Counted from the stretch's first letter, positions 4,316 through 62,868 are shown. The stretch: 64,000 nucleotides of DNA from Nitrososphaeria archaeon (GCA_027078545.1 JALWXN010000001.1:18347-82346), one strand, 5' to 3'. Numbers and translations: made by a program. Notes: generated by a model from the sequence alone, not told the origin.

Positions 4316-5539
4316 TTAGTCTCCCCACCCGAGGGACTTGATCCTCTCGAGCTGTCTCAGTACCCTCTTCCTCACTATATGTGGCATCTCCTCCGGTGGT
4401 ATATCCTCCTGTAGTATCTTCTCACCATTCTTTATGGCTGTCACCAGCATCTTCTCCATCTCTCCCCCGCAGCGTGGGCATCTCCCCACCTTTCCGCTCC
4501 TTGGGAGTACTAGGTATTCATAGCATTCCCTGCATCTATAGACCTCCTTGACGCCGCTGAACTTACCCCTCTTGGCTATTGGCTTGTTGTTGAGCTGTAC
4601 TATGTCGAGGGCGAAGTCGACTATCTTGGCGTTTGAGAGGCTTGCTCCCACGCCGTATCCATCCACTGGTGCGTCTCCAAGCCTCTTCACGAGCTCGATA
4701 TCCACGCCTCCAGAGAGGAATATCTTTACGTCTCTGTATCCCCGTAGGTCTAGCTCCCACCTCACCTCCCTGATTATTGTGGCTATGTCACCCCTCCTTG
4801 AGCCAGGTGTGTCGAGCCTGACACCATCGAGTTTCTCGCCGAGTGTCTCGGCCGCCTTTATGGCTTCGGTCTTCTCGTCAGCGAATGTGTCTATCAGGGC
4901 TATCCTGGGTACGTCTCTCTCCACGTGTCTGTCGAAGGCTTTCCATGCCTCCTCCTGGCTCCCCATGATTATCACTAATGCGTGTGGCATGGTTCCCATC
5001 GGCTTCATCCCGAGTATCTTGGCGCTTAGTATGGAGGAGACCCCGTCGAACCCACCTATGTATGCGGCGTAGTCGAGCATCGGGGTTATTGCTGGGTGCA
5101 TCCTCCGGGCCCCGAATGCTAGGAGTGTCTTGTCCCATGCATGGTATCTTAGGTGGGCCGCGTATGTGGCTACCCCGGTGGCTTGGCTCAGTAGTCCTAG
5201 GAGTGGGGTCTCGTAGATGGCGAAGTCGATGTATCTGCCTGAGATGTATCCGATGGGTACGCGTATCCCGTTGTAGTCATATGGCTTGAAGAGGGTGCCC
5301 TCCGGCAGGATCCTGAGGGTTATGGGTAGCCCTTCTAAGAGGTTTATGGCTTCATACGTCCCGGCGAGTATGCCCCATGTGAATCCGTATGGTAGTCCTC
5401 CCGAGGTTATCTCCATATCGACTTGTGCCTCTCCCCTACCCTCCTTCTTTAGTATGTCTACTGTGCGGATGAAGTAGATGTCTGTCGTCCCACCCCTCTT
5501 GATCTCACTCTGGGTGGCTACTAGGAATCTCCTATCCAT
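4316..5539 (-). CDS. pncB: Nicotinate phosphoribosyltransferase (archaeal type with C-terminal zinc ribbon)
   Basis: 407 aa. N-terminus 'TDIYFIRTVDILKK', 'GTMPHALVI', 'RLDTPGSRRG', and a C-terminal 'CRECYEY...CPRCGG' zinc knuckle, as in archaeal type II PRTases. Confidence 0.8.
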   Translation of the reverse strand: MDRRFLVATQSEIKRGGTTDIYFIRTVDILKKEGRGEAQVDMEITSGGLPYGFTWGILAGTYEAINLLEGLPITLRILPEGTLFKPYDYNGIRVPIGYISGRYIDFAIYETPLLGLLSQATGVATYAAHLRYHAWDKTLLAFGARRMHPAITPMLDYAAYIGGFDGVSSILSAKILGMKPMGTMPHALVIIMGSQEEAWKAFDRHVERDVPRIALIDTFADEKTEAIKAAETLGEKLDGVRLDTPGSRRGDIATIIREVRWELDLRGYRDVKIFLSGGVDIELVKRLGDAPVDGYGVGASLSNAKIVDFALDIVQLNNKPIAKRGKFSGVKEVYRCRECYEYLVLPRSGKVGRCPRCGGEMEKMLVTAIKNGEKILQEDIPPEEMPHIVRKRVLRQLERIKSLGWGD

Positions 5540-5561
5540 CTGTATGCACCGCCTAGATATG

Positions 5562-7346
5562 TTAATTGGTCTCTAGGAAGTAATATTCGCCTATCTCCTT
5601 CTGGTACCTGTCGAGCCTGCTGTCTGGCTTGTTTATCCTTGGCCTCCCGCTATGCCTATCGCGCCTCAGGGTTACCCCTACCTCCTTGAGGAAGGTGTTC
5701 ATCGCGTCTATCTTGTCCATAGGCTTTGTTGCGTATCCCCTTCTCGATGGTTCTCCCTTGAATACTATTATCCTGTCGGAGACCGCGTCCACCATTATTA
5801 GGTCGTGGTCGATCACGGCTGCTGGTTTCCCGCTCAGCTTTATGAACTTGTTTATCGCGTTGGCGAGTACTAGTCTGTCCTCCACGTCTATGAAGGCTGA
5901 TGGCTCGTCTAGTAGGTAGAGGTCTGCCTCCATGAGTAGCGTGGCTGATACGTAGAGCTTCTGGAGCTCCCCTCCTGAGAGGTCCTTCACCCTCCTCTCT
6001 AGTAGCTTGTATAGGTTGAGGGGTTTGAGTAGGTTGTCTACTGCCTGTCCTGACAGTGCCTTTGACCCGACCTTCTCTAGGAGGAAGTCCTGGACTGTGC
6101 CTTCGTACTCCGGCCTTATGTACTGGGGCTTATATGCTATCCTACCCGGCCCCACTATTATTTCTCCCTCATCCGGCTCCAGCTCCCCCACCAGCATGCG
6201 GAAGAAGGTGGTCTTGCCGGTGGCGTTCTGGCCCACTACCCCGACTACCTCTCCATTGTATATCTCCCCATCCTCCACCTCTAGGTGGAACCCGTTGAGG
6301 GTCTTGCTCAGCCTTGTATACTTGAGTATTGGGGTCTCCTCCACCTTGTGGCTTGGCTGTGGCTTCTCGAAGACTATCTTCCTATCCCTGAACCTTATGT
6401 TGTCGCCGGGGATGTATCCGTCTAGGAATATGTTTATACCTGTCCTTACACTCTCGTTTCGGGTGAATATGCCGTAGGTGCCCGGCTCTCCATAGACTAC
6501 TGATACCTGGTCGCTTACATAGTCGAGGAAGGCTAGGTCGTGGTCGACGAGTACTACGTACTTTCCTCTCTGGGCTATCTCTGTTATTAGCCTGGCTATG
6601 GCCATCCTCTCGAAGACGTCGTTGAAGCTGCTGGGCTCGTCTATCAGGTATGCATCCGCATCTTTTAGGAGTGCTGCTGCTAGTACGAGTCTCTGCACCT
6701 CTCCTCCTGAGAGGTTCTTGACGTCTTTGTCGAGGCTGTTCCCAAGGTTCAGCCTCTCCACCATGTAGTCTATCTCGCCCGTCTCGTCGGCCTTCCTGAG
6801 TAGGTCTATAACCCTGCCCTTCACTATCCTGGGGGTTAGGTATACCTCCTGTGGCTTGTATGATACTCTTAGCCTACCGTCGTATAGGTCTTTGAAGTAG
6901 TAGTATAGCTGTGTCCCTGAGAGGTAGTCTAGGACTGCGTCTCTATCGGGCTCCTTCTCTAGGTTGCCCAGGTTTGGTATCAGCCTGCCTGACAATATCT
7001 TTATGGCTGTAGACTTCCCAGTCCCGTTCCTACCCACTATTCCGAGTACCTGGCCCTTTAGGGGTGTGGGTAGGCGGAAGAGTCTGAAGCCGTTTACGTC
7101 GTATTGGTGGATCAGGTCTGTCTCGAGCTGTTGTGGCAGGTTGACTATGGTTATTGCGTTGAAGGGGCATTTATTTACACATATTCCACAGCCTATGCAG
7201 AGGGGCTCGTTGATATATGGCTCCCCCTCTATGAACTCTACCGCCATTATACCCATCTTTACGGGTGGGCAGAACCTCTGGCATTCATGGTTACACTTGT
7301 CTGGGTTGCATATGTCCCGGTCTATTACGGCTACTCTTAGCACCAT
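5562..7346 (-). CDS. abce1: ABCE1 / RNase L inhibitor-type ribosome recycling ATPase
   Basis: 594 aa. N-terminal diferredoxin-like domain ('CNHECQRFCP', 'CIGCGICVNKCP') followed by two ABC domains ('GRNGTGKST', 'GQNATGKTT', 'LSGGE' twice). Confidence 0.95.
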   Translation of the reverse strand: MVLRVAVIDRDICNPDKCNHECQRFCPPVKMGIMAVEFIEGEPYINEPLCIGCGICVNKCPFNAITIVNLPQQLETDLIHQYDVNGFRLFRLPTPLKGQVLGIVGRNGTGKSTAIKILSGRLIPNLGNLEKEPDRDAVLDYLSGTQLYYYFKDLYDGRLRVSYKPQEVYLTPRIVKGRVIDLLRKADETGEIDYMVERLNLGNSLDKDVKNLSGGEVQRLVLAAALLKDADAYLIDEPSSFNDVFERMAIARLITEIAQRGKYVVLVDHDLAFLDYVSDQVSVVYGEPGTYGIFTRNESVRTGINIFLDGYIPGDNIRFRDRKIVFEKPQPSHKVEETPILKYTRLSKTLNGFHLEVEDGEIYNGEVVGVVGQNATGKTTFFRMLVGELEPDEGEIIVGPGRIAYKPQYIRPEYEGTVQDFLLEKVGSKALSGQAVDNLLKPLNLYKLLERRVKDLSGGELQKLYVSATLLMEADLYLLDEPSAFIDVEDRLVLANAINKFIKLSGKPAAVIDHDLIMVDAVSDRIIVFKGEPSRRGYATKPMDKIDAMNTFLKEVGVTLRRDRHSGRPRINKPDSRLDRYQKEIGEYYFLETN

Positions 7347-7441
7347 GTCTATCCACCCCCAATAATTATTCTAGGCCCCTCTCCCCCTGAGCCCCGTGTT
7401 CAAGACCCTTAATATATATCTATTCCTGGTAAATTAGTGGG

Positions 7442-8143
7442 GTGGTGTCCTGCCATATGAGTAGAGCAGGTGGTGTGACTACTAATCCTATCGATATGTT
7501 GAAGTGGAGCATCGACTGGATGGCTAGGGATAACAAGATATGGATATACCCTGTCCTCCTCTCCCTCATCTCCGGCCTACTCATCTATGCCCTGAGCATC
7601 GTCTTCCTACCCGCAGCGATCCTCCTACCATTCGCGATATTTGTATGGTGGCTCATAGTACTAGTGGTTAACCTGCTTATCCAGCTCGTCATATACGTCC
7701 TGATGGTCATCAGTGGTAAGATGTTTCTACAGGCCTTTACCGAGGGCTCTACAGACTTTGAGAGGGCTAAGAGGGAGGTCCAGTCCGCGATCGGCGCATA
7801 TATAGTCGTAGGTATAATAGCTGTGATCCTCGGCGCCCTCATCATAACTGCGCCGCTGGGTATTATGCTGGTTGTCTACTCCATCCTATACGATCCATCT
7901 AGGATCGCTGAGAACCTTGAGAGGGGCTTCAGGGCTATCATAGATAACCTCGCCCATGTACTTATCTTCATAATCATCTCTATAGTGGCTGGTGCCCTAC
8001 TATCCCTATCCGGCTCGTTGCTCTCGATACTCACCAACCCGTTGTCGACATTCCTGAACATTGCTGTGCTGGGTGCCTTCGTCTATCTCGCCGCTGAGTA
8101 TGAGGGTCTAGGTGGGGAGGAGGCTGGTCCTGAGGAGGTCTAA
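7442..8143 (+). CDS. Hypothetical multi-pass membrane protein
   Basis: 233 aa with several long hydrophobic segments. A TATA-like 'TTAATATATATC' at about 7409-7420 lies about 27 nt upstream of the GTG, consistent with a leaderless transcript. Confidence 0.5.
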   Translation: MVSCHMSRAGGVTTNPIDMLKWSIDWMARDNKIWIYPVLLSLISGLLIYALSIVFLPAAILLPFAIFVWWLIVLVVNLLIQLVIYVLMVISGKMFLQAFTEGSTDFERAKREVQSAIGAYIVVGIIAVILGALIITAPLGIMLVVYSILYDPSRIAENLERGFRAIIDNLAHVLIFIIISIVAGALLSLSGSLLSILTNPLSTFLNIAVLGAFVYLAAEYEGLGGEEAGPEEV

Positions 8144-53283: not shown

Positions 53284-53772
53284 TTAGGCCTTACCCATAT
53301 GTATCCTGGCTATGAAGTCTTCTAGGCTGCTGCTGTTGATGAGGGTCTCGAGGGCCTCCATGGGGCCGAGCCTGTCCACTGCCTCCTGGAAGGCTTCTAG
53401 GAGGAGGGTCTGTCTATAGGTGCTGGGGCCGCATCCCCTGGCTCTCCAGAAGATGTTCGACGCCTCTTCCAGCCTCTTCCCCAGGTATATGAGGTAGGCT
53501 ATGGCTACTGTCCCAGTCCTTCCACATCCTGCTCGGCAGTGGAGGTATACCTTCTCCCCCCTGGATCTGGCCTCGTCTATCTCCTTTATGGCTAGGCCTA
53601 TGTTCCTGACCGGCTCCACGTCGAAGTCTGTTATGTGTAGACACCTCTCCCTGGGCTTGTTGGGAGCTGTGGGCTTCGCCCCACAGTCTAGTGAGACTAT
53701 CCTGTCCACCTCTATGTCTAGGAGTATCTTGCCTGGCCCCACGTAAAGCCCTGGCACGAGCTCTACTGGCAT
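53284..53772 (-). CDS. Dual-specificity/protein-tyrosine phosphatase (CX5R)
   Basis: 162 aa with the active-site motif 'VYLHCRAGCGRTGTV'. Confidence 0.8.
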   Translation of the reverse strand: MPVELVPGLYVGPGKILLDIEVDRIVSLDCGAKPTAPNKPRERCLHITDFDVEPVRNIGLAIKEIDEARSRGEKVYLHCRAGCGRTGTVAIAYLIYLGKRLEEASNIFWRARGCGPSTYRQTLLLEAFQEAVDRLGPMEALETLINSSSLEDFIARIHMGKA

Positions 53773-53825
53773 GTTAAAAAGTAGGGGCTGTAAATCTAAT
53801 AATGGCTTAAAGGGCTTGGCCAGGG

Positions 53826-54053
53826 GTGTGGCTGGTGAGGAAGGTCTCTATAGAGATTCCGGAGACTCTTTATAGGAGGCTCGAGGCCCTAGCAGGGAGG
53901 ATAGGCGCTGGGTCTGTGTATGAGCTTGTTGTGGATCTCCTGAGGGAGGGTGTCTCCCGGCTGGAGGAGGATCTGGACTCTGGGCATGAGCTTAGTGAGG
54001 AGGAGGTTAGCCGTATCAGGGAGAGGCTTAGGAGCCTCGGGTATCTAGACTAG
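53826..54053 (+). CDS. Ribbon-helix-helix (CopG/MetJ-like) protein with conserved C-terminal 'LRSLGYL' tail, copy 1
   Basis: 75 aa. The likely true start is the GTG at 53835, giving MRKVSIEIPETLYRRLEALAG.... It shows a beta-strand plus two-helix pattern and is a paralogue of 62662..62868. It ends 10 nt before sat. Confidence 0.6.
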   Translation: MWLVRKVSIEIPETLYRRLEALAGRIGAGSVYELVVDLLREGVSRLEEDLDSGHELSEEEVSRIRERLRSLGYLD

Positions 54054-54063
54054 GTGTCTACCT

Positions 54064-55212
54064 ATGGTTAGCCGTCCCCATGGGGGTAGGCTGGTCAGGA
54101 GGGTCCTGCCTAGGGATAGGTTGGAGGATATCCTCCGGGATAGTAGGGGGCTGCACCAGCTGGATGTTGATGACACTATCTATAGGGATCTCGAGAACAT
54201 AGGGTATGGCGTCTATAGCCCCTTGACAGGCTTCCTCGATAGTGTGGAGCTCGAGAGTGTCCTGCTTACCATGAGGCTGTCCAACGACCTTCCCTGGACA
54301 ATCCCTATAGTACTGGATATCGATGAGGAGGCAAGAAGGTCGATAGGTATTGGCGATACGGTCCTACTTAGGTATGGTGGACAGCCCGTGGGGCTCCTCA
54401 TGGTTGAGGAGGTCTACCGTTACGACAAGAGGCTATATGCGGAGAAGGTGTTCAAGACTACTGACCCGGCTCACCCAGGTGTCGCTAGGGTGATGTCTAT
54501 GGGGGACTACTTGGTAGGCGGGTCTGTCGAGTATATCCCGATGGTTAGGGATGGCTATGAGGACTACTTCCTCACACCTATGGAGACCCGTGTACTCTTC
54601 AGGGAGAGGGGCTGGGAGACTGTTGTTGCCTTCCAGACTAGGAATGTCCCACACCTTGGGCATGAATATGTCCAGAAGACCGCCCTAACCTTTGTCGACG
54701 GCCTCTTCATAAACCCTGTGATCGGTAGGAAGAAGAGGGGGGACTTTAGGGATGAGGTTATCCTCGAGGCTTATAAGACGCTTATAAACAGGTTCTACCC
54801 GAGGGGCTCCGTAGTCATGAGTATCGTTAGATATGCTATGCGCTACGCAGGGCCCCGTGAGGCTATCCACCACGCGGTTATGAGGAAGAATTTTGGGGCT
54901 ACCCACTTCATAGTTGGTAGGGATCATGCCGGGGTGGGTAACTACTATGGGAGGTATGAGGCCCAGGAGATCTTCTCAGAGTTCCCCGACCTAGGTATTA
55001 CCCCGCTCTTCTTCAGGGAGTTCTTCTACTGTAGGGGGTGTGGAGGAATGTCCAACGAGAAAATATGCCCACATGATAGGGATCTCAGGATCTATATCAG
55101 TGGTACGAGGATTAGGGAGAGCCTCTCGCGGGGCGTCGTTCCGCCTGGGGAGATGATGCGTAGGGAGGTGGCTGAGACGATACTCTCCTTCGAGAACCCC
55201 TTCGTGGAGTAG
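54064..55212 (+). CDS. sat: Sulfate adenylyltransferase (ATP sulfurylase)
   Basis: 382 aa. 'FQTRNVPHLGHEY' (HxxH), 'GRDHAGVG', and an N-terminal PUA-like domain. Confidence 0.9.
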   Translation: MVSRPHGGRLVRRVLPRDRLEDILRDSRGLHQLDVDDTIYRDLENIGYGVYSPLTGFLDSVELESVLLTMRLSNDLPWTIPIVLDIDEEARRSIGIGDTVLLRYGGQPVGLLMVEEVYRYDKRLYAEKVFKTTDPAHPGVARVMSMGDYLVGGSVEYIPMVRDGYEDYFLTPMETRVLFRERGWETVVAFQTRNVPHLGHEYVQKTALTFVDGLFINPVIGRKKRGDFRDEVILEAYKTLINRFYPRGSVVMSIVRYAMRYAGPREAIHHAVMRKNFGATHFIVGRDHAGVGNYYGRYEAQEIFSEFPDLGITPLFFREFFYCRGCGGMSNEKICPHDRDLRIYISGTRIRESLSRGVVPPGEMMRREVAETILSFENPFVE

Positions 55213-55249
55213 TATCGAGTCTTTATCCCCCTAGCCAGGCTATACATAG

Positions 55250-56281
55250 ATGGGTGTCTCGATAATGGATATGCCCAGTGAGATTAGGGAGAGGCTTGGC
55301 GGGAGTAGGGCCCTACTAGCCTTCCACTGGGATGCAGATGGAATCTCCTCGGCAGCCCTCCTACTGGATGTCCTGGGGCTGGATGCCGTGCTCTACACAC
55401 CAGTTATAGGGCTGTATAGACTTGTCCCCGAGGACCTCCCCAGGGATATAGATGTAGATGCATTGGTGGTGGCTGATATGGGTGTATCCACAAAGGCTAT
55501 CGAAGGGGTGGCGGAGTATCTAGGCGTCCCCGGCTACGTGTTTGACCATCACCATAGGGAGCCCTCGGATAGGCTGTTTATAGCCAGGTATATCGATGGG
55601 TATGGAGACCTATATCCCTCCGCCTCAATGGTCATCACTGATGCCCTTGGGATAGAGCCTAACACGTTGACTATCCTTGGCATAGCGGGGGATCTCGAGG
55701 AGGGTGTTAGGGAGTCTAGGTACTATGGTGTTGTTGAGAGGGTTGCAAGTAGGTATGGCTTGAGACCTAAAGACTTTATAGAGATATCCCGGCTTGTGGA
55801 CACCAACTACCTATTCCTCGATAGGGCTGGTGTGATAGAGGCCGTCCATGCCCTGAGGGAGTATAGGGAGGATCCCAAGGCGCTACTGGCGAGGGATGAC
55901 TGGAGGGCTAGGCTCGAGGAGTTTATGGGTGAGTTGGAGCGTCTCGCTAGGGTGGAGCTGGAGGAGGTCGATGGGATACTCTTCCGGGAGCTGGATAGTA
56001 GGCTGTACATAGTTTCTAAGCTTGGTAGGATGCTGAGTAGGAGGAACCCCGATAAATATGTCCTACTAGGTGTGCCGCGGATGGCCAATGGCTATAGCCA
56101 GGTATACCTCAGGACTGGGAGGGGGGACGTGGATCTTAGGCCCCTGATCGAGAGGCTGAGGGGTATGGGTCTCTATGCAGGGGGGAAGAGGAATGTCTTG
56201 GGCGCCGTTGTCGAGCCTGGTAAATATAGGGCTGTCCTGGGCGAAATATTTAGGTATCTAGGTGTCCCAGATGTCGTGTGA
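55250..56281 (+). CDS. DHH/DHHA1-family phosphoesterase (NrnA-like; candidate pAp phosphatase)
   Basis: 343 aa. 'AFHWDADGISSAA', 'VADMG', 'FDHHH', and a C-terminal 'GGKRNVLGAV' in the position of the DHHA1 GGGH motif. Confidence 0.7.
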   Translation: MGVSIMDMPSEIRERLGGSRALLAFHWDADGISSAALLLDVLGLDAVLYTPVIGLYRLVPEDLPRDIDVDALVVADMGVSTKAIEGVAEYLGVPGYVFDHHHREPSDRLFIARYIDGYGDLYPSASMVITDALGIEPNTLTILGIAGDLEEGVRESRYYGVVERVASRYGLRPKDFIEISRLVDTNYLFLDRAGVIEAVHALREYREDPKALLARDDWRARLEEFMGELERLARVELEEVDGILFRELDSRLYIVSKLGRMLSRRNPDKYVLLGVPRMANGYSQVYLRTGRGDVDLRPLIERLRGMGLYAGGKRNVLGAVVEPGKYRAVLGEIFRYLGVPDVV

Positions 56282-56807
56282 TAAGGGGTTCGTCGTATGG
56301 TTCACCGGTATACCCGGCTCGGGTAAGACTACACTGGCTAGGATGCTTAGGGAGAGGCTGTCGAGCATGGGTCTATGCGTGGAGCACCTGGATGGGGATG
56401 AGGTTAGGCCTTGGCTGAGCCCCGAGGCGGGCTTCTCCCGTGAGGATAGGCTTAGGCATCTGAGGAGGGTGGCCTTCGTTACACACCTCCTGAGTAGGAA
56501 TGGGGTGGTGGTGCTCGCCTCCTTCGTCTCCCCGTATAGGGAGGCTAGGGATCTGGCGAGGGAGCTGAATGGGGATAGGTTTGTGGAGGTCTATGTGAAG
56601 TGTCCGGTGGAGGTGGCTGTTGAGAGGGATCCCAAGGGCCTCTACAGGAAGGCTCTCAAGGGTGAGATTAAGAACATGACTGGTATCCAGGACGTCTATG
56701 AGGAGCCGCCTAACCCCGAGGTCGTGGTGGAGACTGATAGGGAGACCCCCGAGGAGAGTCTAGAGAAGATACTCGGTTTCCTAAGGAGTAGGGGCTTCAT
56801 AGGATGA
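56262..56807 (+). CDS. cysC: Adenylylsulfate (APS) kinase
   Basis: 181 aa. P-loop 'FTGIPGSGKTTLA', 'LDGDEVR', 'GFSREDRLRHLRRVAFV', 'FVSPYREARD'. The likely start is the ATG at 56271. It overlaps the end of the DHH gene. Confidence 0.9.
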   Translation: MSQMSCDKGFVVWFTGIPGSGKTTLARMLRERLSSMGLCVEHLDGDEVRPWLSPEAGFSREDRLRHLRRVAFVTHLLSRNGVVVLASFVSPYREARDLARELNGDRFVEVYVKCPVEVAVERDPKGLYRKALKGEIKNMTGIQDVYEEPPNPEVVVETDRETPEESLEKILGFLRSRGFIG

Positions 56808-58372
56808 GTAGTAGGCGTATATTGCTGCTTGGGTGGGACGGGGTTCCGCCAGGCCTTATTAGGGAGCTTGTAGAGACCGGTAATACGCCTAATCTTTCAG
56901 AGGTGTTTGGGGAGGGGCGGTTCGGCGAGGTTGTAGCCCCCCTACCCATTGTGACTCCTGCGAGCTGGTACTCTGCATTTACGGGTGTGGAGCCATATAG
57001 GCATGGTATTCCCCACTTCGTCGTGATAGATAGGGAGTATAGGCTTAGATACATGTCTATATCCGACCTCAGGGTCGAGGCTATCTGGGATGTCCTCGGT
57101 AGGCATGGTGTGGAGGGGCTCTATCTAAACCTCCCGGTCTCCACACCCGCGCCGAGGGTAACTGGGTTGTGGATAGGGGGTGAGCAGATCTATAGAGAGG
57201 TTAGGGAGGCAGACGTATATCCATCCGAACTCGTTAGAGAGCTTAGGACCCTGGGCTACATGGTTGGATACCCAAACATATCGACGGATCCCGGTAGCTA
57301 TGTATCCGGCCTACTTATGGCTGAGTCGAGGCGACTAGACGTATTTACACGCCTGATGGATAGGCGTCAATGGGGGTTGTCAATCTACATAGCATACTCC
57401 CCCGACATAGTTCTACACGCCTTTTACGGGATGGATGGTTATCGGGAACATATCTATAGATGTTTCGAGGAGCTGGATCGATGGCTAGGGACACTCCTCA
57501 ACCGTCTTGATAAGGAGGACATACTTGTCTTGATGTCTGATCATGGCCATGGATACAAGAATGGGTATATAAATCTCCTGGCGCTACTCAGGAGCATGGG
57601 GTTATTGGCGACCCGTAGGCCTAAAGGGTTGAGGATGAACTGGGTCCGGAGGGTAGGCCTGGTCAGGAGGATATGGTGGAGGCTCCCTGACCGTATGAGG
57701 AGGTGGATAGGGAGGTATGTACTGGGTAACATAGTGGTTCTCGACACACCCTCAAGGATCTCTGGAGCTAGTATAGACTGGGATGTGACAAAGGCCTTCC
57801 CCCAGGTGGATATAGGGGGTATCAAGATGCATAGGGCGGATCTCTTCCCCCGTGGCGTCTTGGATAGGGGTGAGGCATATGAGCTGGCCGTCAAGATTGT
57901 CGAGGAGCTTAGGAGAGTCGACTTCGGAGGCTCCCCCATATTCGGGGATGTCGTCCTCAACTTCAACGATGATCCGTTGACGCCAGACATATATCTAGAG
58001 CCCAGGGATGATCTCTGGTTCAAGTCTAGGGTTGAGGATGAGCTCATAATCCAGAACAGGCCTGATAGGTATCTCTCTCCGACCCGGATAGATGTGGCTG
58101 GTGATAGGGCGTCGTACCATGTTAGGAATGGATTTATCCTTGTATATGGCGAGGATATAGAGCCAGGTGACGCTGGTATCATTAGGATGGTGGATGTTAT
58201 GCCGACGGTTCTACATATGATGGGCCTACCGATACCTACGGGGCTGGATGGAGGTGTAGCAGAGTCTATTCTTACTAGGGAAGCTATTAATAGGGATGTA
58301 AAGTATGAGAGGAGTCTTAGAAGGGATCTTCGTGCAAGATCCCGTTCCCTTAGGAGGAGGCTCAAGAGGTAG
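56804..58372 (+). CDS. Alkaline-phosphatase-superfamily protein (type I phosphodiesterase/nucleotide pyrophosphatase family), paralogue 1
   Basis: 522 aa. 'LLGWDGVPPG' (metal Asp), 'IVTPASWYSAFTG' (nucleophile Thr context T.P......TG), 'LMSDHGHG'. Overlaps cysC through an ATGA. Confidence 0.7.
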   Translation: MSSRRILLLGWDGVPPGLIRELVETGNTPNLSEVFGEGRFGEVVAPLPIVTPASWYSAFTGVEPYRHGIPHFVVIDREYRLRYMSISDLRVEAIWDVLGRHGVEGLYLNLPVSTPAPRVTGLWIGGEQIYREVREADVYPSELVRELRTLGYMVGYPNISTDPGSYVSGLLMAESRRLDVFTRLMDRRQWGLSIYIAYSPDIVLHAFYGMDGYREHIYRCFEELDRWLGTLLNRLDKEDILVLMSDHGHGYKNGYINLLALLRSMGLLATRRPKGLRMNWVRRVGLVRRIWWRLPDRMRRWIGRYVLGNIVVLDTPSRISGASIDWDVTKAFPQVDIGGIKMHRADLFPRGVLDRGEAYELAVKIVEELRRVDFGGSPIFGDVVLNFNDDPLTPDIYLEPRDDLWFKSRVEDELIIQNRPDRYLSPTRIDVAGDRASYHVRNGFILVYGEDIEPGDAGIIRMVDVMPTVLHMMGLPIPTGLDGGVAESILTREAINRDVKYERSLRRDLRARSRSLRRRLKR

Positions 58373-58375
58373 TTT

Positions 58376-59764
58376 GTGATGAGGAGGCGTCTAGTTGTCT
58401 TTGGTCTGGATGCCGCTGCTCCTGAGCTGGTATTCAATAAGTTTCTGGATTACCTACCCAATTTCCGGAGGGTTATCGAGAGGTCTGTACATGGTAGGCT
58501 TAGGAGCTGTGACCCGCCTATAACTGTCCCGGCCTGGATGGTTATGATGACTGGTAGGGAGCCTGGGGAGCTTGGGCTCTATGGGTTTAGGCATAGGAGT
58601 GGCTATAGCTACACCGAGTATGAACTCCCGAGTAGCAGGTCTATCAGGAGGCCCCGTGTATGGGATGTCCTTGGTGCTGAGGGGCTTAGGAGCTTCGTGA
58701 TGGGTGTCCCACCCTCCTATCCACCGTATAGGGTTAATGGGTGGCTTATCTCATGCTTCTTGACTCCAGATGATAGTGTCCAGTTCACCCATCCCCTCCC
58801 CCTTAAGTATGAGGTTAAGAGGCTTGTTGGTAGGTATGTCTTCGACGTTCCTTTTAGGAGGGAGGATAGGGACTGGGTTCTGGATAGGATCCATGAGATG
58901 ACGGATATACATGAGAAGGTTGCCCTTGAGATGCTTGTGAGGAAGCCTTGGGACTTCTTCATGTATATGGAGATTGGTCTCGACAGGGTTCAGCACGCCT
59001 TCTGGAAGTATATGGATAGGGGTCATAGGAGGTTTGAGGAGCATCCCCGCTTCTCAAGGGCTATACTCGAGTACTATGTCAGGCTGGACAGGATACTGGG
59101 TGAGATCATTAGGAGGGCTGGGGACGCTGATATATTGATAGTCTCGGACCACGGTGCGAAGAGGATGGATGGGGCCTTCGCTATCAATGACTGGCTGGTG
59201 GAGCAGGGCTATCTAAAGCTTAGGGGGGATGTGGAGCCAGGCACGAGGATCTCGAGGGCAGATGTGGACTGGGGGGAGACGATTGCATGGGGATGGGGCG
59301 GCTACTATAGCCGTATATTCCTTAATGTCGAGGGGCGTGAGGAGATGGGCGTAGTCTCGAGGGAGGAGTATGAAGATGTTCTTAGGGAGCTCTCTAGGAA
59401 GATCCTGGGTATCAGGGGGCCTGATGGCGAGGCGTGGCGTAACGTTGTCTATAGGCCTGTGGAGATCTATCGGGAGGTTAATGGTAACCCCCCTGATCTG
59501 ATGGTCTACTTCGATGATCTCTACTGGAGGGCGGCTGGTACGATGGGCTATGAGACGCCCTACCTGGAGGAGAATGATACTGGGCCTGACGACGCCGTCC
59601 ATGACTATGACGGGATCTTCATATGGTATAACAGGGGTAGCGGTGTGGAGAGGGACGCCTCTATCTACGATGTCTTCCCAACCATCCTTAGGTTCTATGG
59701 CTTGGAGCCGCCAGAGGATATACGTGGGGAGGTTGTGGAGGAAGTCTTTAGGGGGCAGGGCTAG
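58376..59764 (+). CDS. Alkaline-phosphatase-superfamily protein (type I phosphodiesterase/nucleotide pyrophosphatase family), paralogue 2
   Basis: 462 aa. 'VFGLDAAAPE', 'PITVPAWMVMMTG', 'IVSDHGAK'. Collinear with the upstream paralogue, with a 3-nt intergenic gap. Confidence 0.7.
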   Translation: MMRRRLVVFGLDAAAPELVFNKFLDYLPNFRRVIERSVHGRLRSCDPPITVPAWMVMMTGREPGELGLYGFRHRSGYSYTEYELPSSRSIRRPRVWDVLGAEGLRSFVMGVPPSYPPYRVNGWLISCFLTPDDSVQFTHPLPLKYEVKRLVGRYVFDVPFRREDRDWVLDRIHEMTDIHEKVALEMLVRKPWDFFMYMEIGLDRVQHAFWKYMDRGHRRFEEHPRFSRAILEYYVRLDRILGEIIRRAGDADILIVSDHGAKRMDGAFAINDWLVEQGYLKLRGDVEPGTRISRADVDWGETIAWGWGGYYSRIFLNVEGREEMGVVSREEYEDVLRELSRKILGIRGPDGEAWRNVVYRPVEIYREVNGNPPDLMVYFDDLYWRAAGTMGYETPYLEENDTGPDDAVHDYDGIFIWYNRGSGVERDASIYDVFPTILRFYGLEPPEDIRGEVVEEVFRGQG

Positions 59765-60908
59765 GTATTACCGCCCCACTCTCCACAAGCCTCTCGATCT
59801 CATCCTCGCTGTATCCGAGCATGGATAGGATCTCCCGGTAGTGCTGGCTCAGCCGTGGTGGGGGTATCTGTGTATAGATCCTCCTACCATCGATCCTCAT
59901 CGGTGGCTTGAGATAGGCCCTGCCACCGGGGTCTCTCCCCAGGGCCCCGGCCTCCTCGAGGTATCCACTCCTAACCATCTCGACCACCCTGTTGACGGGG
60001 GCCGTGGGTACACCTGCACTGCTTAGCTTCTCGAGGGCCTCCTCGAGGCTTAGCCTTGATATCTTCTCCCCTATCTCGCGGTCCACGTACTCCCTGTTCT
60101 CCACCCTATCCGGGTTGTGTCTACACCTGGGGTCTCCAAGTAGGTGTTCTAGGCCTAGTGCCCTGCAGAGCCTCTCGAATAGGTTGTCGTTAGCCGCTGC
60201 CACTGCTATCCATCTCCCATCCCTGGTTTGGTATGCCCTGTAGGGGACTATGGATGGATGTCCTGAGCCGTGTCTACCAGGCTCTATCCCGGCGTGGAGG
60301 GCTGAGTATACTAGGTAGGACATGGAGTATATCATGGAGTCCATGAGGGAGACCTCTATCATGGTGGGCCTTCTATTCCTTCGGAGTGCGTCGAGTATCG
60401 ATACTGCTGCGTATAGCCCGGTGAAGATATCGGCTATGGCGAAGCCTACACGGGTGGGCTCCTCCCCCTCGTTGCCGGTGGCCATCATTATTCCTGAGTA
60501 TGCCTGTATAATCAGGTCGTAGGCCGGCTGCCTAGCTAGTTTCGTGTCTGGGCTGTATCCCCTTATGACGCAGTAGACTATCCTGGGATTCACCTCCCTG
60601 ACCCTATCGTAGCCTAGGCCCAGCCTCTCGGCGACTCCATCCCTATAGTTGTGGATCAATACGTCTGCCCATCTAACCAGTCTTTCGATGACCTCTCTAC
60701 CCCCTTCATTCTTCATGTCTATCGCTATGCTCCTCTTCCCTCTGTTGATGCTGTAGAAGTATGTCGAGACACCATTCACGATTGGTGTGTATAGCCTCGT
60801 CTCGTCACCCCATGGAGGCTCGACCTTGACTACCTCAGCTCCCAGCTCTGCTAGGACCATCGTGGCGAAGGGGCCTGCCAATACCCTGCTCATGTCGAGT
60901 ATCCTCAT
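59748..60908 (-). CDS. Family III CoA-transferase (CaiB/BaiF/Frc-like)
   Basis: 386 aa. 'RILDMSRVLAGPFATMVLAELGAEVVKVEPP' and the catalytic Asp context 'GFAIADIFTG'. Confidence 0.85.
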   Translation of the reverse strand: MRILDMSRVLAGPFATMVLAELGAEVVKVEPPWGDETRLYTPIVNGVSTYFYSINRGKRSIAIDMKNEGGREVIERLVRWADVLIHNYRDGVAERLGLGYDRVREVNPRIVYCVIRGYSPDTKLARQPAYDLIIQAYSGIMMATGNEGEEPTRVGFAIADIFTGLYAAVSILDALRRNRRPTMIEVSLMDSMIYSMSYLVYSALHAGIEPGRHGSGHPSIVPYRAYQTRDGRWIAVAAANDNLFERLCRALGLEHLLGDPRCRHNPDRVENREYVDREIGEKISRLSLEEALEKLSSAGVPTAPVNRVVEMVRSGYLEEAGALGRDPGGRAYLKPPMRIDGRRIYTQIPPPRLSQHYREILSMLGYSEDEIERLVESGAVIPSPAP

Positions 60909-60982
60909 AATACCTGTTATTCCTCCCGAGGGGTATTTGACGAATCCCTTAATGAACCAGTTATGTACTCCCTATTCTAGGT

Positions 60983-62653
60983 GTGTCTGGGATGAGGGTG
61001 TCGCAAAATCTGTTGAGGCTGATGGATGAGAGTATTGACCGTGGATGGTTCGACGTGGCAGAGGTGTCGGGCATAATCGGTGGCAGGGAGAAGACGCTCT
61101 CCACATTAATTGAGGGGTATGTCCTGGGCCTATTCAACTATAGGGGTGAGACTGTCTTCGAGCTTAGGAGGGAGGGGCTGGAGCTGCTGAATATATGGGG
61201 CTTCCTGGGTAGGCCAGAGGCTGATCCATGGATAGACACTAGGGTATACAGCATGCTCAGGACCCTCTTGATGAGGCCTGGTGGGATACCTGAGGACTGG
61301 GTAGGCCTCCTTGAGGAGAGGGGTCTAGCCACTGGTGATGAGCTCTCCCAGTATGCGGCTGAGCTACTCTCCCTCATGGATAGGCTCGAGAAGACTATAT
61401 TCCTGACCACCGGCTTCGCAGGGCTATTCACCACGTTTCCCGACGGCCCCGCTGAGAGGGTTAGGTTCCCCCAGGGATGGGAGCTCGCCGAGGCCATGTC
61501 CCTACTCGTAGCCTCTATACCTAATGGCCTCTACCTAGGCCTCACAGAGGCTGGTAGGACGCTTAAGAGGGCATTGAGGAACCTGGCTATACCCAGGGGT
61601 ATACCGGTGGTTGTTAATAGGCGTATCCTGGAGGGTCTGGAGAGGCTGGAGGCCAGTGAGAAGATCCCTGACGACCTTCTCCAGCTCCTGATAAGTCTCG
61701 ACTATGTATCTGGCCTTGGACGGCTCGAGTATAGGGGTAGGATGGTTCTCAGGGCGTATAGGCTGGTTAGGAGCCCACCTGTCAATAGGCCGATGGCGAT
61801 GACTGCTGAGGAGGAGCAGCTTCTGAGGGGTGTGGTGATTACGTGGAGGGAGAGGATGGATAAGACGAATGTATATGCTACTAAGGAGAGGATTGCTAAG
61901 AACCTAGGTGTGGAGTGGACGGGCGACCTTGGGCTTAGCCTGAAGCATCTAGAGAGCCTGGGCCTGGTGGAGGAGTACTATGAGGATGGGAAGGAGGAGT
62001 ATAGGCCGACGAAGGAGGGTGAGGAGTTGTCTGGGCTGCCCGGCCTGGGTGAGGGCACGAGTGTCGAGGCCGTCTCCTCCGTGGCGAAGACCGTATCTGC
62101 ACTGTCCCCCAGTGAGGAGTGGGTCTCCGAGGCCCTCTCCAGAGGCATTCTTGGTGGGCAGGGGCCTACGAAGAAGGGTGAGATGCTCTATAGGGCTGGG
62201 TACTATGCGAGGAGGCCCTTCCTAACCAGGGATGAGGCTATAGCCCTGAGGCAGATGCCTGAGAGGAAGAGTGTGGATAAGTCCTACCTAGTCGGTAGGG
62301 GGGTGGATGAGAAGGGTATTAATAGGCTGGTAACGCGTGGATTGATAGAGCTCCTCCCCGACGGTAGGTATGTGATAACTGATGCAGGCCTCCTGCTCAA
62401 GACTGCCCTGGTAGCTGTCTCGCCGGGTATAGCCACGCCTGTCTATCCGACGCTGGTCAAGGTCTTGGAGGCGATCGATAGCCTCAACACGGATGATCCT
62501 GTCGAGATAATTAAGAGTACGAAGCTCTCGGTAGATGCTGTGAAGACAGCGTTGATCATCGGTAGGAACGCGAAGTATATAGGGCGTTCCGGTAAGGAGT
62601 TGACCCAGGCTGGAAAGGCGTTGTTGCAGGCGGCTAAGCTACTGGCCAGCTAG
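60983..62653 (+). CDS. Hypothetical protein built from about eight winged-helix-like repeats
   Basis: 556 aa with recurrent '(hydrophobic)-G-(L/I/Y)-(V/I/L)...(5-12 aa)...(L/P/I)T.(A/E/K)G..L' modules. See the corresponding finding. Confidence 0.5.
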   Translation: MSGMRVSQNLLRLMDESIDRGWFDVAEVSGIIGGREKTLSTLIEGYVLGLFNYRGETVFELRREGLELLNIWGFLGRPEADPWIDTRVYSMLRTLLMRPGGIPEDWVGLLEERGLATGDELSQYAAELLSLMDRLEKTIFLTTGFAGLFTTFPDGPAERVRFPQGWELAEAMSLLVASIPNGLYLGLTEAGRTLKRALRNLAIPRGIPVVVNRRILEGLERLEASEKIPDDLLQLLISLDYVSGLGRLEYRGRMVLRAYRLVRSPPVNRPMAMTAEEEQLLRGVVITWRERMDKTNVYATKERIAKNLGVEWTGDLGLSLKHLESLGLVEEYYEDGKEEYRPTKEGEELSGLPGLGEGTSVEAVSSVAKTVSALSPSEEWVSEALSRGILGGQGPTKKGEMLYRAGYYARRPFLTRDEAIALRQMPERKSVDKSYLVGRGVDEKGINRLVTRGLIELLPDGRYVITDAGLLLKTALVAVSPGIATPVYPTLVKVLEAIDSLNTDDPVEIIKSTKLSVDAVKTALIIGRNAKYIGRSGKELTQAGKALLQAAKLLAS

Positions 62654-62661
62654 CACGTTAT

Positions 62662-62868
62662 TTATAGGTATCCAAGGCTCCTCAGATTATCCTTTATCTT
62701 CTCCTCCTCCTCGGGGCTGTAGCTCCTCTCCTCCCCGCCCAGCGTCTCCTTGATAATGAATTCTAGGAGGTCCTCCACACTCTTGAATTCCCCGCCGCTC
62801 TCCTCGACTGTCTTCTTCAGTAGCTCGTAGGACTCCCTTGAGATCTCGATGCTGACCTTCTCAGACAC
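62662..62868 (-). CDS. Ribbon-helix-helix protein with C-terminal 'LRSLGYL' tail, copy 2
   Basis: 68 aa with a GTG start: MSEKVSIEISRESYELLKKTVEESGGEFKSVEDLLEFIIKETL...EEEEKIKDNLRSLGYL. Paralogue of 53826..54053. Confidence 0.6.
   Translation of the reverse strand: MSEKVSIEISRESYELLKKTVEESGGEFKSVEDLLEFIIKETLGGEERSYSPEEEEKIKDNLRSLGYL

Follow-up and report, generated by a model that had tools for sequence, protein, structure and literature searches.

What does an archaeon do with activated sulfate when its genome offers no recognizable route for reducing it? The question is raised by a 64,000-nt stretch of DNA from a Nitrososphaeria archaeon (GCA_027078545.1 JALWXN010000001.1:18347-82346; hereafter the window, with all coordinates counted along its one given strand). 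Positions 53,826 to 59,764 carry an operon for the synthesis of 3'-phosphoadenosine-5'-phosphosulfate (PAPS) via adenosine 5'-phosphosulfate (APS), together with a phosphoesterase predicted to clear the by-product 3'-phosphoadenosine-5'-phosphate (pAp) and two proteins of the alkaline phosphatase (AlkP) superfamily with a nucleotide pyrophosphatase/phosphodiesterase (NPP) fold, AlkP1 and AlkP2. The operon belongs to a known archaeal cassette for sulfate activation, copG-ATPS-pApase-NPP-APSK (ATPS, ATP sulfurylase; APSK, APS kinase), and its core is not new. On balance, we lean towards a cassette that makes PAPS as a donor, with the published helper role in pyrophosphate (PPi) hydrolysis as the working assignment of AlkP2. 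The six genes are:

53826..54053, plus strand: ribbon-helix-helix (RHH) leader, a small CopG/RHH-like protein of 75 aa, presumed regulator (open reading frame, ORF; tail-bearing homologues upstream of sat)
54064..55212, plus strand: sat, ATP sulfurylase, sulfate + ATP -> APS + PPi (PF01747, PUA_2, NF003166)
55250..56281, plus strand: DHH/DHHA1 phosphoesterase of the archaeal PAP-phosphatase type, predicted reaction pAp -> AMP + Pi (homology to 8A8K)
56262..56807, plus strand: cysC, APS kinase, APS + ATP -> PAPS + ADP (PF01583, TIGR00455)
56804..58372, plus strand: AlkP1, NPP-fold PF01663 protein of 522 aa, lineage-specific add-on (PF01663 77 bits, catalytic set, AlphaFold2 (AF2) model)
58376..59764, plus strand: AlkP2, NPP-fold PF01663 protein of 462 aa, invariant fourth enzyme of the cassette (PF01663 157 bits, synteny, AF2 model)

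A preliminary description of the locus had listed six co-directional, near-contiguous genes, and all six ORFs were found on the plus strand. By their coordinates, the intergenic gaps measure 10, 37 and 3 nt, as described, and cysC overlaps AlkP1 by an ATGA; the second overlap, of 20 nt with a GTG start, lies between the DHH gene and cysC and is also present in a relative (L082). The motifs quoted beforehand (HLGH, GRDHAG, DHHH, TPASWYSAFTG, TVPAWMVMMTG and SDHG) are all readable in the translations. Sat matches PF01747 at 1.5e-87, PUA_2 at 7.5e-50 and NF003166 with 516.8 bits (cut-off 387), CysC matches PF01583 at 1.1e-57 and TIGR00455 with 218 bits (cut-off 138.7), and both AlkP proteins exceed the PF01663 cut-off of 23 bits.

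The arrangement is already on record as the published copG-ATPS-pApase-NPP-APSK cluster: from Pyrococcus yayanosii, F. placidus, A. boonei, A. pernix and I. hospitalis, Jin et al. 2021 reported a cassette made up of copG, ATP sulfurylase, DHH pApase, a "type I phosphodiesterase/nucleotide pyrophosphatase", APS kinase and TauE, for which no sulfotransferase or sulfite-reducing enzyme was identifiable (PMC8268124). Published clusters, of Thermococcales and others, include PYCH_17520-17570 of P. yayanosii, TON_1704-1707 of Thermococcus onnurineus and Ferp_2428-2433 of F. placidus (PMC8268124, PMC4463584), and within the T. onnurineus cluster PMC4463584, citing Lee et al. 2009, gives TON_1704 as APSK, TON_1705 as pyrophosphatase, TON_1706 as PAP phosphatase and TON_1707 as ATPS. 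The window shares the five components of this cassette, co-directional and tightly packed, but is a variant of it: the order is sat-DHH-cysC-AlkP1-AlkP2 rather than sat-DHH-NPP-cysC, so that cysC precedes the NPP gene, an extra paralogue (AlkP1) is inserted, TauE is not adjacent, and a second tail-bearing RHH gene lies downstream. A TauE homologue was not found in the genome at E<1e-8.

The host genome (G000) spans 1.24 Mb in 11 contigs and is 92% complete; its closest relatives are metagenome-assembled genomes (MAGs) labelled Thermoprotei SZUA-1514, Geothermarchaeota and Nitrososphaeria, and its class-mates are Nitrosopumilaceae-like. The absence of APS/PAPS and sulfite reductases, noted beforehand for the window, holds for this whole genome, in which the sulfite reductase domain NIR_SIR was not found. 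The one weak PAPS_reduct match, considered as a CysH candidate, is a TtuA/NcsA tRNA thiolase. Canonical sulfotransferases are absent as well, not just from the window: a Pfam search found neither PF00685 nor PF13469 in the six operon proteins, and Sulfotransfer_1 and Sulfotransfer_3 are missing from the whole genome, as are sulfatase-family PF00884 proteins. The earlier proposal that PAPS is made as a donor rather than for assimilation thus stands. We infer a role as sulfuryl donor because a reductive route is lacking here and in most carriers of the cassette, and because glycan genes recur in its neighbourhood.

That the operon feeds assimilatory sulfate reduction, through unrecognized reductases or through ones encoded in the unassembled 8% of the genome, is very improbable. 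The corresponding cluster has been labelled "assimilatory sulfate reduction" (PMC8268124, PMC4463584), and in Methanothermococcus thermolithotrophicus the PAPS reductase that works alongside ATPS, APSK and PAPP is of an atypical kind (PMC10322725). That locus (ATPS, APSK, MtPAPP, APSR-like PAPS reductase and Fsr) shares with the window ATPS, APSK and the exonuclease-derived DHH PAP phosphatase; the window differs in having an NPP-fold protein instead of the PAPS and sulfite reductases, which the genome lacks. Moreover, sulfite reductase is missing from 41 of 51 AlkP2-bearing genomes in a cross-phylum set, and M. infernus has the genes but does not grow on sulfate (PMC10322725). The class-mates that do assimilate look different: the 43 of them lack AlkP2, have sat next to a genuine cysH (PAPS_reduct 168 bits) and carry a lower-scoring cysC some 20 kb from it. 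Five Nitrosopumilaceae-like class-mate loci (L089-L093), compared with the window, give a clean contrast between an assimilatory and a PAPS-donor layout.

Removal of pAp by the DHH protein is well supported, as is PAPS synthesis by Sat and CysC, both as predictions from homology to assayed enzymes. Although its PF01368 score of 24.9 bits falls under the cut-off of 28.1, the DHH protein aligns over its full length with the M. thermolithotrophicus PAP phosphatase MtPAPP (PDB 8A8K; E=3.6e-23, residues 18-337 against 18-332), and its metal motifs (HWDxD, D, DHH and GD) line up with those of that enzyme. The biochemistry of DHH pApase homologues has been reported (PMC10322725, PMC8268124), with the PAP phosphatase characterized by Jespersen et al. 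2023 (PMC10322725). The match to 8A8K bears out a candidate pAp phosphatase, as first suggested, but not the NrnA-type label, as the protein belongs to a distinct archaeal pApase branch rather than to NrnA proper.

AlkP2 is the constant companion of these enzymes. Synteny was examined in 80 AlkP2 loci, one genome per species, counting neighbours within 3.5 kb on the same strand. The neighbourhood check asked for in the preliminary description comes out in favour of AlkP2, which stands beside sat and/or cysC in 71 of the 80, across many phyla: sat is present in 58, cysC in 63, both in 51 and at least one in 70, to which one locus with a divergent, opposite-strand arrangement (L008) is added. 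The usual order is RHH-sat-(DHH)-AlkP2-cysC, with a DHH gene in 14 of the 80 loci, and the closest relatives (L002-L004) share the cysC-first order of the window. The neighbourhood is enriched in sugar-nucleotide and glycosyltransferase (GT) genes, with short-chain dehydrogenase/reductase (SDR) epimerases/dehydratases in 32 loci, UDP-glucose dehydrogenase in 15, GT2 in 13 and RmlA in 9; the TauE permease occurs in 12. In the cultured Ferroglobus placidus (L101; CP001899.1, 2077198-2090571), RHH-sat-DHH-AlkP2-cysC-TauE lies between aglB (STT3 oligosaccharyltransferase) and GT2/GT22/GT4 genes, and the cassette region is flanked on both sides by HEPN/nucleotidyltransferase pairs.

The AlkP2 family is large, with homologues 45-74% identical across archaeal phyla and some bacteria, including Thermoproteota, Bathyarchaeia, several Asgard lineages, Archaeoglobi, Thermoplasmatota, DPANN and Aminicenantes. 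The F. placidus orthologue (P0105), encoded between DHH and cysC, is 53% identical, and from gene order, annotation and this verified member AlkP2 would correspond to PYCH_17550 and TON_1705. D12, T50, D203, H207, D258, H259 and H409 are invariant in 20 homologues; in NPPs these positions supply the nucleophile (Thr) and the six residues that bind the metals. The AF2 model (predicted local distance difference test, pLDDT, 90.9) has its nearest Foldseek matches in ENPP1/3 and the Xanthomonas NPP (TM-score ~0.6, 12-16% identity), whereas a PDB sequence search with the AlkP2 profile gave marginal matches only. PF01663 is the only Pfam match of AlkP1 and AlkP2, with no PF00884 in either and no family-I pyrophosphatase domain PF00719 in AlkP2. 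Both AlkPs thus share with the NPPs (Xanthomonas NPP, ENPP1/3) the fold (TM ~0.5-0.6), the Thr nucleophile and the six metal ligands, but differ in their low identity (10-16%), in being cytoplasmic, without signal peptide, and in large family-specific inserts (an invariant WGWGGYY in AlkP2, a basic insert and tail in AlkP1). AlkP2 is thus predicted to be an NPP-fold enzyme of the cytoplasm that uses two metals and a Thr as nucleophile.

One AlkP2 gene is fused to cysC: in L044 (5260-7197; Nitrosopumilaceae MAG DASSAF010000061.1) a single 646-aa frame joins AlkP2 (residues 6-465) and APS kinase (476-641), with an assembly artefact possible. Apparent Sat-AlkP2 fusions were rejected, the long frames being two same-frame genes split by one stop or stop-to-stop artefacts.

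How might these enzymes work together? In the first step, Sat would form APS and PPi, and CysC would then phosphorylate APS to PAPS; PAPS would be spent on sulfation of some cellular acceptor rather than reduced to sulfide, and the by-product pAp would be cleared by the MtPAPP-type DHH enzyme. By hydrolysing PPi, the only activity measured for a counterpart (TON_1705), AlkP2 may draw the unfavourable Sat reaction forward. Lee et al. (2009, J Bacteriol 191:3415) are said to have described the T. onnurineus cassette and to have assayed TON_1705 as a weak pyrophosphatase. Jin et al. 2021 "speculate" that the NPP-like protein degrades PPi (PMC8268124), and for TON_1705 acting on PPi Table 1 of PMC9653972 gives a kcat of 2.1 s-1, a Km of 18.8 uM and a pH optimum of 9.5. 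A pyrophosphatase role of AlkP2 is possible in the host because its genome lacks a family-I soluble pyrophosphatase (PF00719 was not found; membrane H+-PPase and family II were not searched), and 33 of the 51 AlkP2-bearing genomes, this one included, likewise have no PF00719. By analogy with TON_1705, PPi hydrolysis is therefore kept, tentatively, as the working assignment of AlkP2.

Several observations weigh against this helper role and the reading built on it. The pyrophosphatase activity goes back, through citing papers, to one in vitro study of TON_1705, and the T. onnurineus family-I PPase has a kcat of 3x10^4 s-1, ~10^4-fold above that of TON_1705 (PMC9653972). A sample of 301 genomes from across the phylum contains 39 with AlkP2, 102 with sat and 36 with operon-type CysC, defined as at least 174 bits (195 for that of the window). 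AlkP2 is present in 34 of the 36 genomes with operon-type CysC (Fisher p=4e-37, uncorrected for phylogeny), and sat occurs without AlkP2 in 65 of the 301. Being tied to operon-type cysC and not to sat, AlkP2 tracks PAPS synthesis rather than sulfate adenylylation as such. Nor is there the anticorrelation with family-I PPase to be expected if AlkP2 stood in for that enzyme, which is found in 24 of 39 AlkP2 carriers and 116 of 262 non-carriers of the phylum sample. The sole natural fusion in the 80 loci joins AlkP2 to CysC (L044), not to Sat. Taken together, the tie to cysC, the absent anticorrelation, the low kcat and the fusion suggest that the pyrophosphatase helper is not the whole story. 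In the cross-phylum set, 41 of 51 genomes lack sulfite reductase, 37 both canonical sulfotransferase families and 26 sulfatase-like proteins; 16, including this genome and two DPANN, lack sulfite reductase, Sulfotransfer_1/3 and sulfatase-like proteins alike. With no known PAPS consumer in these 16, the PAPS-spending step is unassigned unless an AlkP performs it, and AlkP1-type paralogues, present in 13 cassette loci, are absent from 67 of the 80. For the host organism itself, we know of no sulfated product.

The same observations suggest another role, in which AlkP2 is the enzyme that spends PAPS, a "non-canonical sulfo-transferase", and PPi hydrolysis is incidental, owing to the strongly cationic character of a site that binds phosphosulfate. 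Besides the link to operon-type cysC, the AlkP2-CysC fusion and the 16 genomes without a known consumer, the position of the cassette beside AglB and glycosyltransferases in F. placidus and near sugar-nucleotide genes in many loci would fit such an enzyme, as would the presence, in most carriers, of a family-I PPase that is much faster and makes AlkP2 redundant (PMC9653972). The term itself was raised by Jespersen et al. 2023 for methanogens that keep ATPS, APSK and PAPP, and archaea with these enzymes and no reductive pathway pose the same question (PMC10322725). A precedent for the idea of an AlkP-type sulfotransferase, put forward in the preliminary description, comes from Halobacterium salinarum, where the AlkP-superfamily proteins Agl30 (VNG1056C) and Agl31 (VNG1057C), encoded in a glycosylation cluster, are, on genetic evidence, needed for sulfation of the N-glycan and behave as sulfotransferases of glycans (Zaretsky et al. 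2025, PMC11980604). Agl30 and Agl31 are, however, sulfatase-like (closest structures 5G2U and 6HHM) and belong to the sulfatase branch, unlike the PF01663 proteins AlkP1 and AlkP2. The low Km of TON_1705 for PPi (18.8 uM, as above) argues against a sulfotransferase, as does the conservation across phyla (45-74% identity), which equals that of sat and cysC and fits a universal small substrate better than lineage-specific acceptors. NPP chemistry, moreover, normally attacks phosphorus, not sulfur, and we know of no precedent for a sulfo-Thr intermediate or for sulfuryl transfer via Thr on an NPP site. We rate a PAPS-spending AlkP2 as less likely than not.

A second enzymatic alternative, that AlkP2 and/or AlkP1 are NPP-type hydrolases of APS, PAPS or pAp that set sulfonucleotide levels or back up the DHH enzyme, would suit the NPP fold and complete catalytic set of both proteins and the binding of AMP-type nucleotides by eukaryotic NPPs (PDB matches); as the DHH gene occurs in only 14 of the 80 loci, another pAp-clearing enzyme could be needed. 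Hydrolysis of APS or PAPS within the operon that makes them would, however, be futile, AlkP2 coexists with a specific DHH pApase here and in 13 other loci, and in T. onnurineus PAP hydrolysis is assigned to TON_1706 and not to TON_1705 (PMC4463584, PMC8268124). We consider such a hydrolase improbable.

Two genomes have an operon-type cysC and lack AlkP2; in one of them (L098; G303:C1:930000-947000) RHH-sat stands beside a 638-aa PAPS_reduct-ferredoxin fusion and a 258-aa protein matching only the N-terminal PAPS-binding part of Sulfotransfer_3.

AlkP1 has a narrow distribution. The two had been described as tandem paralogues, and paralogy holds; a recent tandem duplication does not, since identity between them is 26% and confined to the N-terminal 288 residues, which makes them old paralogues. 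AlkP1 is closer to a third paralogue in the genome, AlkP1b (41% identity, C4:794409-796058), than to AlkP2. It retains the catalytic residues D12/T51/D201/H205/D246/H247/H439, a full set also seen in relatives, and its AF2 model (pLDDT 87) has an NPP fold, with the Xanthomonas NPP (Xac NPP) and ENPP1 as best structural matches; the arylsulfatase 6HHM is touched by the A1 profile at E=4.9e-4 only. Around residues 270-320 the protein has an insert, modelled with low confidence, that is rich in Trp and strongly basic, and its C-terminus forms a basic helix. Close homologues number about seven (40-93% identity), the remaining ones being distant (21-27%). AlkP1 occupies the same operon position in the relative L082, is missing from the next relative (L002), and has a 40% homologue that stands alone elsewhere, so that conservation of AlkP1 with sat/cysC does not extend beyond the closest relatives. 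Longer AlkP paralogues of ~510-565 aa like AlkP1 nevertheless recur near cassettes: 9 of 13 genomes with full-length matches carry the cassette, against a base rate of 36 in 301, although the link is not strict. AlkP1 is best described as a fast-evolving add-on paralogue of this longer, tail-bearing AlkP class, and, where present, the AlkP1 type would be a more plausible acceptor-specific partner than AlkP2.

The neighbours of AlkP1b (ornithine transcarbamylase (OTCase), a resolvase, DUF2589, PIN, two unknown ORFs and a CRISPR array) give no functional clue. About 1.3 kb away, beside the PIN and resolvase genes, lies a 3.4-kb stretch without ORFs of at least 90 aa and without an Rfam match (L099, ~4370-7590; G000:C4, ~789,870-793,090); it is probably a CRISPR array, as the repeat GTTAAAACCAGACTAGGAAGGGTTGAAAG recurs at ~71-nt spacing.

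The leader gene of the operon raises a further possibility through its C-terminus. As a leader gene the preliminary RHH regulator is confirmed: tail-bearing RHH homologues stand upstream of sat in most of the 80 loci, and the P. yayanosii counterpart is annotated copG (PMC8268124). Its fold is weakly supported: the protein itself matches no Pfam family, the profile built from its family reaches the NikR RHH domain at E=0.0026, and PF01402 is matched by 4 of 16 relatives. The leader is presumed to be a regulator. In alignment with relatives, its true start is possibly a GTG at 53835 (MRKVSIEIPE...), not 53826. The leader of the window ends in a conserved acidic tail, EEEVSRIRERLRSLGYLD, and a near-invariant tail of the form F(T/S)xEEEEK(I/V)KERL(R/K)xLGY(I/L)(D/E) ends every RHH leader from Thermoproteota to Aminicenantes. 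The same tail ends distant AlkP1 homologues (P0128-P0132) and extra AlkP paralogues (L055:16131-17810, L063:3603-5291 and three in L078), and a similar sequence ends some CysC proteins; in AlkP1 and its close relatives the basic helix takes its place. On the simplest reading of these alignments, the tail looks like a shared docking peptide. On a broader proposal, possible but doubtful, proteins of the AlkP2 and/or AlkP1 type could be an unrecognized class of NPP-fold PAPS-dependent sulfotransferases with a two-metal site and a Thr nucleophile, and the acidic ...RLxxLGY(L/I)(D/E) tail would dock clients or the regulator onto the PAPS-making enzymes.

What hangs on the choice reaches beyond this locus, which represents no new kind of system but a clean minimal case of the cassette. 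Many anaerobic or thermophilic archaea and some bacteria possess a complete PAPS factory without a known use of PAPS, an acknowledged question (PMC10322725), and archaeal sulfotransferases are only just starting to be identified (PMC11980604). The genome encodes three NPP-fold proteins, AlkP2, AlkP1 and AlkP1b, and because these are its only unassigned PAPS-linked enzymes, AlkP2 and AlkP1 are direct biochemical targets. Should either be a sulfotransferase, it would represent a structural class new among such enzymes and account for the cassette across hundreds of species; should AlkP2 be a pyrophosphatase only, the finding would be ordinary.

Two further features flank the operon:

53773..53825, no strand: presumed promoter region, divergent and intergenic, 53 nt between the DSP/PTP-like gene and the RHH gene, A/T-rich (TTAAAAAG, TAAATCTAATAAT, CTTAAAGG)
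62662..62868, minus strand: RHH2, second small tail-bearing RHH paralogue, ending in EEEEKIKDNLRSLGYL (ORF, tail, synteny in relatives)

Divergently from the RHH gene, a dual-specificity/protein tyrosine phosphatase (DSP/PTP)-like protein of 162 aa is encoded at 53284-53772 on the minus strand, with an HCRAGCGRTG P-loop and a PF00782 match of 2.9e-11; two relatives, L002 and L082, have it in the same place, and in L060 a weaker homologue is found upstream of the cassette. Two genes, for a family-III CoA-transferase and a DUF505 protein, stand between AlkP2 and RHH2 (59748-62653); the former is on the minus strand, and its stop reaches 17 nt into the end of AlkP2. Both look inserted, because RHH2 directly follows AlkP2 in L002 and L082.

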